Shown: in pieces, positions 15,094 to 15,124 of the stretch
Position numbering within the stretch: position 1 is the stretch's first letter
Layout: every line of letters begins with the position of its first letter
NCBI RefSeq assembly: GCF_030384885.1
Contig: NZ_CP128613.1
Length of the DNA: 64,000 nucleotides
Source: Escherichia coli
Lineage (GTDB): Bacteria > Pseudomonadota > Gammaproteobacteria > Enterobacterales > Enterobacteriaceae
Reading direction: 5' to 3' (one strand)
Notes under the pieces: model-generated
Seen by the model: only the letters and a program-made list of their open reading frames with translations
The model's database searches: none
Told to the model about the DNA's origin: nothing
Made by a program: the position numbers and the translations under genes

Positions 15094-15124
15094 TTAAAGT
15101 CACCTGCATAGCAGGTGACTTTAA
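15094..15124 (-). terminator. Perfect 14-bp-arm palindrome just downstream of fadL stop
   Basis: TTAAAGTCACCTGC-ATA-GCAGGTGACTTTAA; no strong U-run, so could be terminator or protein site. Confidence 0.4.

Follow-up and report, generated by a model that had tools for sequence, protein, structure and literature searches.

How does the transcript of fadL end in an E. coli chromosome where a silenced foreign gene follows directly downstream? The question is raised by a stretch of 64,000 nucleotides (hereafter the window) from the E. coli chromosome, with the gene order mlaA (+), a 399-aa open reading frame (-), fadL (-), yfcZ (+) and fadI (+). E. coli strain 2013C-4282 has an identical sequence at this locus (100%), and K-12 one of about 90% identity. 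Just past the end of fadL lies a long perfect palindrome, for which a sequence-only reading had proposed a role as 3' structure of the mRNA or as protein-binding site, rather than as a simple intrinsic terminator. The features that bear on the question are collected in Table 1.

Table 1. Features of the fadL-icaT locus, with coordinates in the window.
Feature	Coordinates	Strand	Basis
A6-stem-T6 bidirectional intrinsic terminator after mlaA	13394..13425	.	Terminator scan; sequences of L003, L004 and the window
AT-rich insert (~31-37% GC), missing from B2-type E. coli, carrying icaT/yfdF and its promoter region	13427..15126	.	Comparison with the empty-site genomes L003 and L004; GC profile; PMC9241512
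icaT/yfdF, 399 aa allele; H-NS-silenced, MxiE/IpgC-activated orphan gene	13566..14765	-	Open reading frame list, annotation, PMC9241512
C-rich, G-poor untranslated stretch, candidate Rho loading region	15012..15091	-	Composition count
Perfect palindrome, 16-bp arms, 3-nt loop; 3'-terminal stem-loop of the fadL transcript	15092..15126	-	Fold, repeat search, K-12 Term-seq end corresponding to 15093
6-bp hairpin CGCGUU-CUGAU-AACGCG across the fadL stop codon	15134..15150	-	Fold; lies within the anchor common to 113 loci
fadL CDS, long-chain fatty acid outer-membrane transporter	15141..16487	-	Open reading frame list; RefSeq annotation of the identical strain 2013C-4282 and of K-12

Geometry and stability of the palindrome

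The palindrome had been described as TTAAAGTCACCTGC-ATA-GCAGGTGACTTTAA with 14-bp arms at 15094-15124, and it is found at exactly these positions. Perfect pairing reaches 2 bp further on each side (AGTTAAAGTCACCTGC / GCAGGTGACTTTAACT, arms 15092-15107 and 15111-15126), which yields a stem of 16 bp with 7 G-C pairs and a loop of 3 nt (ATA). The distance to the fadL stop codon (TGA, 15143-15141; the RefSeq start lies 6 nt inside the longest open reading frame) had been given as about 20 bp and is in fact shorter, namely 16 nt if counted to the 14-bp arms, or 14 nt if counted to the full stem of 16 bp. By length, the palindrome tops all short-loop inverted repeats of the window. Only about 2e-4 such repeats (arms of at least 16 bp, loops of at most 12 nt) are expected by chance in 64 kb, and the pattern, which occurs once in the window, gave 0 matches across 100 shuffles. 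The second-longest short-loop inverted repeat lies at 60650-60676 (AACCGGAAATAGT-A-ACTATTTCCGGTT) and is a perfect one with 13-bp arms and a 1-nt loop.

Calculation of the folding energy, as the sequence-only reading had advised, bears out its description of a very stable hairpin, with a z-score of about -6 as RNA. Within a 111-nt context the fadL-sense RNA folds at -38.8 kcal/mol (z = -6.0) and the plus-sense RNA at -42.0 kcal/mol (z = -5.5), while the 62 nt surrounding the hairpin give a fold of -26.3 kcal/mol. As single-stranded DNA, the hairpin reaches -17.1 kcal/mol (z = -8.2).

The same reading had also noted that a clean U tract is lacking, and this is correct: the 3' side of the stem continues with CCCUCUCUUCACC in the fadL sense and AAGCUAACGCG in the plus sense, and a consensus terminator scan (threshold of at least 5 T in 8) did not call the palindrome site. 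The sequence following the stem is CCCUCUCU in the window against ACUCCCCC in K-12, with 3 against 1 U in the first 8 nt. Compared with the usual description of an intrinsic terminator, the hairpin has the G+C-rich stem (~5-14 bp) and the short loop, the stem measuring 16 bp here against 13 bp in K-12; the U-rich 7-8 nt directly after the stem are absent.

The 3' end of the fadL mRNA

Mapping of transcript 3' ends had been named as a check, and published K-12 data put the fadL end at the base of the stem. In the Term-seq data of Adams et al. 2021 (PMC7815308; supplementary file 1, sheet LB 0.4) a 'primary' fadL 3' end is listed at 2462694(+) with the sequence TGATAACGCGTTCGCCTGGATAAAGTCACCTGCATAGCAGGTGACTTTAA[C]TCCCCCACTT. 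The mapped end is position 51 of these 61-nt strings, as we checked using the CCA end of the argW tRNA and the U8 tract of sgrS. Read in this way, the K-12 transcript ends at the C directly after ...GCAGGTGACTTTAA, that is 1-2 nt past the stem, which corresponds to position 15093 (-) of the window. Canonical terminators in the table end 7-8 nt past the stem, within the U tract, and for the sgrS control the end is the final U of the U8 tract; the K-12 fadL end thus falls outside the position expected of an intrinsic terminator (in the U tract, 7-9 nt past the stem). The allele that was mapped is that of K-12 (13-bp stem, opposite loop orientation, different 5' flank) and not that of the present strain, and the peak is a weak one with 1497 reads, listed in one of three conditions (LB OD 0.4), which carries little weight as fadL is repressed in LB. 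We have good confidence in the conclusion that it is the hairpin which sets where the steady-state fadL mRNA ends. Of the earlier proposal, the 3' structure as distinct from a simple intrinsic terminator is thereby strengthened by a K-12 end at a U-less stem, whereas the protein-binding alternative finds no support.

Ends of this kind have been described before. Dar & Sorek 2018 (PMC6061677) report a class of precise 3' ends located right after stable stem-loops that lack U tracts, with a mild excess of C over G downstream, and provide evidence for termination further downstream, followed by trimming to the stem by PNPase and RNase II. Most likely the palindrome is an ordinary member of this known class of U-less protective 3' stem-loops. 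The resemblance comprises the 3' end at the base of a stable stem-loop (for the K-12 allele), the lack of both a U tract and an upstream A tract, and the C-over-G (rut-like) enrichment downstream; the latter amounts to 23 C against 13 G in the first 80 nt past the stem (fadL sense), with a ratio of about 1 further on, and is mild and non-specific. Differences are that the stem is unusually long and perfect (13-16 bp), and that for fadL we infer the Rho dependence and the trimming. REP/BIME elements are similar as well, being extragenic palindromes at gene 3' ends which can act as barriers to PNPase and RNase II and so set mRNA ends (PMC6061677). However, REPs occur in hundreds of copies with a family consensus, whereas the fadL palindrome is single-copy.

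With moderate confidence we propose that the hairpin serves as an exonuclease barrier after a downstream, probably Rho-dependent, release of the transcript. With no U tract behind the stem, the hairpin probably makes a poor stop for RNA polymerase. The enzyme likely continues into the icaT/yfdF insert, which is AT-rich and coated by H-NS, and would be released there, most plausibly by Rho loaded on the C-rich stretch just past the hairpin. The 3'-to-5' exonucleases PNPase and RNase II would trim the remaining tail to the base of the stem, which would block them and in this way protect the fadL mRNA, with a presumed stabilising or insulating effect. Taken as a whole, this reading (a stem-loop of 13-16 bp that forms the final structure in the fadL mRNA and sets its steady-state 3' end through downstream release, trimming and protection) is the one we consider probable.

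Two published datasets touch on the separate steps. In a W3110 strain with a pnp deletion, yfdF RNA is up 5.77-fold by qPCR (PMC9927094 Table 1); this rise could fit read-through tails that are stabilised when PNPase is missing, among other explanations. For the fadL strand, the bicyclomycin data of Adams et al. (supplementary file 2) report no Rho region in the interval from fadL to yfdF, at a low power given that fadL is low or repressed in LB. The only Rho entry in this interval, 2463820(-), is antisense to yfdF. A literature search yielded no paper naming both fadL and bicyclomycin.

The main rival to the exonuclease-barrier model is direct termination at the hairpin. In this reading the palindrome would be a non-canonical intrinsic terminator, of which the long stem alone, possibly together with NusA/NusG, would release the polymerase 1-2 nt past the stem, with no need for Rho or trimming. 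The great stability of the stem, the RNA end right at its base and the missing Rho region on the fadL strand (Adams et al.) are all compatible with such a mechanism, and Dar & Sorek (PMC6061677) consider that some sites of this class may be inefficient intrinsic terminators with Rho as backup. Nonetheless, the defining U tract is absent from both alleles (1 U in 8 nt for K-12, 3 for the window), the intrinsic terminators of the Term-seq table end clearly further from the stem than fadL does, and the consensus scan gave no call. Overall, we regard direct termination as unlikely.

The insert, the empty site and the origin of the palindrome

Comparison with genomes that lack the insert shows what the hairpin would replace. 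In two empty-site genomes (L003, L004) the gap between mlaA and fadL is only 61-62 bp, and both genes converge on one A6-stem-T6 hairpin. Without the insert, a bidirectional terminator therefore sits 21-22 nt from the fadL stop, serving both mlaA and fadL. In the window, about 1.7 kb (roughly 13427-15126) now part this terminator from fadL; the gene has been cut off from the terminator it shared with mlaA because the icaT insert came between. The right junction falls between ...GGTGACTTTAAC and TAAGCTAACGCG, and the 12 nt past it are B2-type flank. The palindrome is therefore the final element of the insert on the fadL side, at most 1 nt from the junction. In its placing relative to the fadL stop (~15-22 nt downstream), and presumably in its transcript-ending job, it resembles the B2-type terminator; the latter differs in having an A6 tract, a 7-bp stem and a T6 tract and in working in both directions, whereas the palindrome has neither tract. 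Since the insert removed fadL from the bidirectional terminator in common with mlaA, the hairpin would be needed only in strains where the icaT insert is present. The mlaA-side A6-stem-T6 hairpin (13394-13425; in L003 at 2960-2995) here serves mlaA and presumably icaT too.

The insert stands out by composition, with a GC content of 31-37% over icaT/yfdF against about 50% in the neighbouring genes. The gene yfdF has been renamed icaT; it is AT-rich, activated by Shigella MxiE and IpgC, not present in B2 strains and regarded as horizontally acquired (PMC9241512). It is also reported to be silenced by H-NS, lying in AT-rich, H-NS-bound DNA (PMC9769918). As icaT is co-directional with fadL and located downstream of it, the hairpin lies between the end of fadL and the icaT promoter.

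A match to the entire icaT-fadL intergenic region is found in 4,198 of 5,426 complete E. coli genomes, and in about 1,200 the match begins only at the fadL-proximal edge of the palindrome. The palindrome itself occurs in 3,885 of these genomes, at one place per genome, on the chromosome and only at this locus. A search of a plasmid collection gave no genuine plasmid copy. Five PLSDB records (NZ_CP134663.1, NZ_CP141089.1, NZ_OL790696.1, CP061244.1 and CP137936.1; 0.4-4.9 Mb) do carry the chromosomal fadL-icaT locus and are evidently chromosomes or chromosome fragments filed as plasmids.

The proposed role of the hairpin would account for fadL transcript ends in roughly 75% of E. coli genomes, the icaT/yfdF carriers, which is of modest practical value. 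It also suggests how a silenced foreign gene, co-directional and just downstream of fadL, escapes read-through. Both arrangements together form a natural pair on one gene, with a canonical bidirectional terminator in B2 and a U-less hairpin in phylogroups A, B1, D and E. To a specialist, nothing here will be surprising.

Variation of the locus was assessed with a metagenome scan that was anchored on the conserved 3' end of fadL and not on the palindrome. This gave 108 loci, and together with the window and 4 references a total of 113, of which 21 have the empty site and 92 the insert. The palindrome is present in 92 out of 92 insert loci, and its arms are near-invariant with only three rare variants. 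The commonest is a T to C change at 15100, which keeps a G.U pair in the fadL sense and leaves a C.A mismatch in the plus sense. The flanks are more variable, though with so little diversity in the surrounding intergenic DNA the excess in arm conservation does not reach significance. The window allele, with right flank ACTAAGCT, has the 16-bp stem, keeps the B2-type flank and is rare (30 complete genomes, 6 metagenomic loci); the common K-12-type flank TCCAGGCG cuts the stem to 13 bp. The 6-bp hairpin across the fadL stop codon (DNA CGCGTT-ATCAG-AACGCG) is invariant in 113 out of 113 loci, the empty-site ones included.

The loop is ATA in 32 loci (as in the window) and TAT in 60 (as in K-12), with 0 intermediates. 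That all three bases switch together indicates, on the aligned sequences, an inversion of the loop. Inversion of the loop in a hairpin is a signature of template switching during replication (PMC8794818), and perfect inverted repeats in E. coli are known to be maintained by template switching (PMC5941160); such self-correction could keep the arms perfect in the absence of selection. Perfect arms, both loop orientations and the lack of intermediate states are what the palindrome has in common with such repeats; the difference is that template switching is a mutational mechanism and not a function. Both loop states are found on several flank haplotypes, and the loop state requires 6 Fitch steps on the tree, against 1-9 for ordinary SNPs. 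Because ordinary SNPs are equally homoplastic, recurrent flipping is inseparable from recombination. The ATA/TAT polymorphism makes a tidy population-level case of loop inversion in a perfect palindrome. The T to C variant at 15100 is always accompanied by the TAT loop (5 out of 5 loci), on three flank haplotypes, which could be the outcome of short-tract recombination of the hairpin as a unit or of inversion of the whole hairpin.

These patterns lead to a reading at the level of DNA, in which the palindrome is a by-product with no selected function, either the relic of a DNA end that delivered icaT or a structure that template switching during replication made and kept perfect, and the effect on the 3' end is incidental. 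Its position at the junction between insert and chromosome, the two loop states (a template-switch signature, PMC8794818), the known maintenance of perfect inverted repeats in E. coli (PMC5941160) and an arm conservation that does not significantly exceed the background are all in line with it. Against it, no second copy is seen in any E. coli genome or plasmid, and a scan of one genome per bacterial species returned the palindrome core only in unrelated phyla (12 matches, 0 in Enterobacteriaceae). Moreover, the insert has no terminal inverted repeats and IcaT no detectable transposase or recombinase domain. The RNA 3' end maps to the palindrome whatever its origin, so that a by-product and a protective hairpin are not mutually exclusive. 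We consider the by-product reading doubtful, although it deserves some weight.

Known mobile structures do not offer a source. A REP/BIME or other dispersed repeat can be ruled out by the single place per genome and the absence of the core from the scanned enterobacterial representatives, and a permissive Rfam scan of 13000-17500 (by E-value) gave no match at the palindrome. The ends of the insert have no inverted or direct repeat in common, and no structure matching the palindrome is present at the other end. For IcaT, no sequence match was obtained in Pfam, NCBIfam or PDB and no transposase or recombinase domain was detected, while a search among 1.84 billion representatives returned only the same gene and fragments of it in E. 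coli and Shigella. A weak similarity of IcaT to transposases has been claimed (PMC9241512), which our domain and family searches did not reproduce. With neither a partner structure nor a cognate transposase or recombinase, a mobile-element end finds no support, be it a TIR, a subterminal hairpin of IS200/IS605 type or an integron attC site. One specific scenario holds that the palindrome, instead of arriving with the foreign DNA, was made at the insertion junction by snap-back or template switch while the icaT segment integrated or afterwards, and was kept as the replacement 3' end of fadL after loss of the terminator. We think this quite improbable; if true, it would be a datable new mRNA 3'-end structure, in which one mutational event repaired the damage of horizontal transfer.

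Minor readings and neighbouring sequences

A binding site for a dimeric protein, as operator or as boundary of the H-NS silencing of icaT, is very improbable: only the perfect dyad symmetry and the location at the edge of an H-NS-silenced island speak for it, whereas operator half-sites are typically much shorter than these arms (13-16 bp, spacer 3 nt), the three central nucleotides flip freely among loci, the site is remote from both promoters (past the end of fadL and ~330 bp ahead of the icaT start) and literature searches found no report of binding there.

Equally far-fetched is a terminator for the plus strand, ending either the transcript of an 11-codon open reading frame or a small RNA from a promoter-like site in the insert. 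The open reading frame (15062-15097, MRKLLSVKRGS) has AGGAGG 6 nt before its ATG and a TAA stop within the left arm, a promoter-like site with a score of 10/12 lies at 14929-14958 (+), and the hairpin is equally stable in the plus sense. However, the plus sense also lacks a U tract, Rfam gives no match, no K-12 Term-seq end on that strand is labelled antisense to fadL, and the commonest arm variant disrupts pairing in the plus sense and not in the fadL sense. The open reading frame at 15062-15097 (+) is probably not coding, as its allele differences are all nonsynonymous and frameshifts occur in 5 out of 91 loci; these are due to length changes of a G run and lead to products of 6, 15 or 30 aa.

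Within icaT, 141 nt are duplicated in tandem (47 aa, 75% identity; 14256-14377 and 14397-14518). The duplication explains why the allele here encodes 399 aa against 352 aa in K-12, and fits the 'internal addition' reported for phylogroups D and E (PMC9241512). The duplicated part contains GCAGGTGATTTT at 14323-14334, which equals the palindrome arm at 11 out of 12 positions; by rough hand estimate the chance of such a match is 0.015-0.03, though it is one of many repeats found. A likeness between the arm and that of the mlaA terminator (A[G/C]TCACCT) is too short to carry meaning.

The window contains no sequence within 3 mismatches of the MxiE box consensus GTATCGTTTTTTTANAG, even though icaT is reported to be MxiE-dependent. 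A box-like sequence, GCGTTTTTTGATAG, in which the T run is one base shorter, is located at about 14823-14836 (-), some 60-70 nt before icaT begins.

At the other end of fadL, an RNA 3' end within the 5' UTR, at K-12 2461244(+), is recorded for two growth conditions in supplementary file 3 of Adams et al. This position is about 60 nt upstream of the fadL start (roughly 16540-16550 (-) in the window) and may point to early termination or to processing within the fadL leader.
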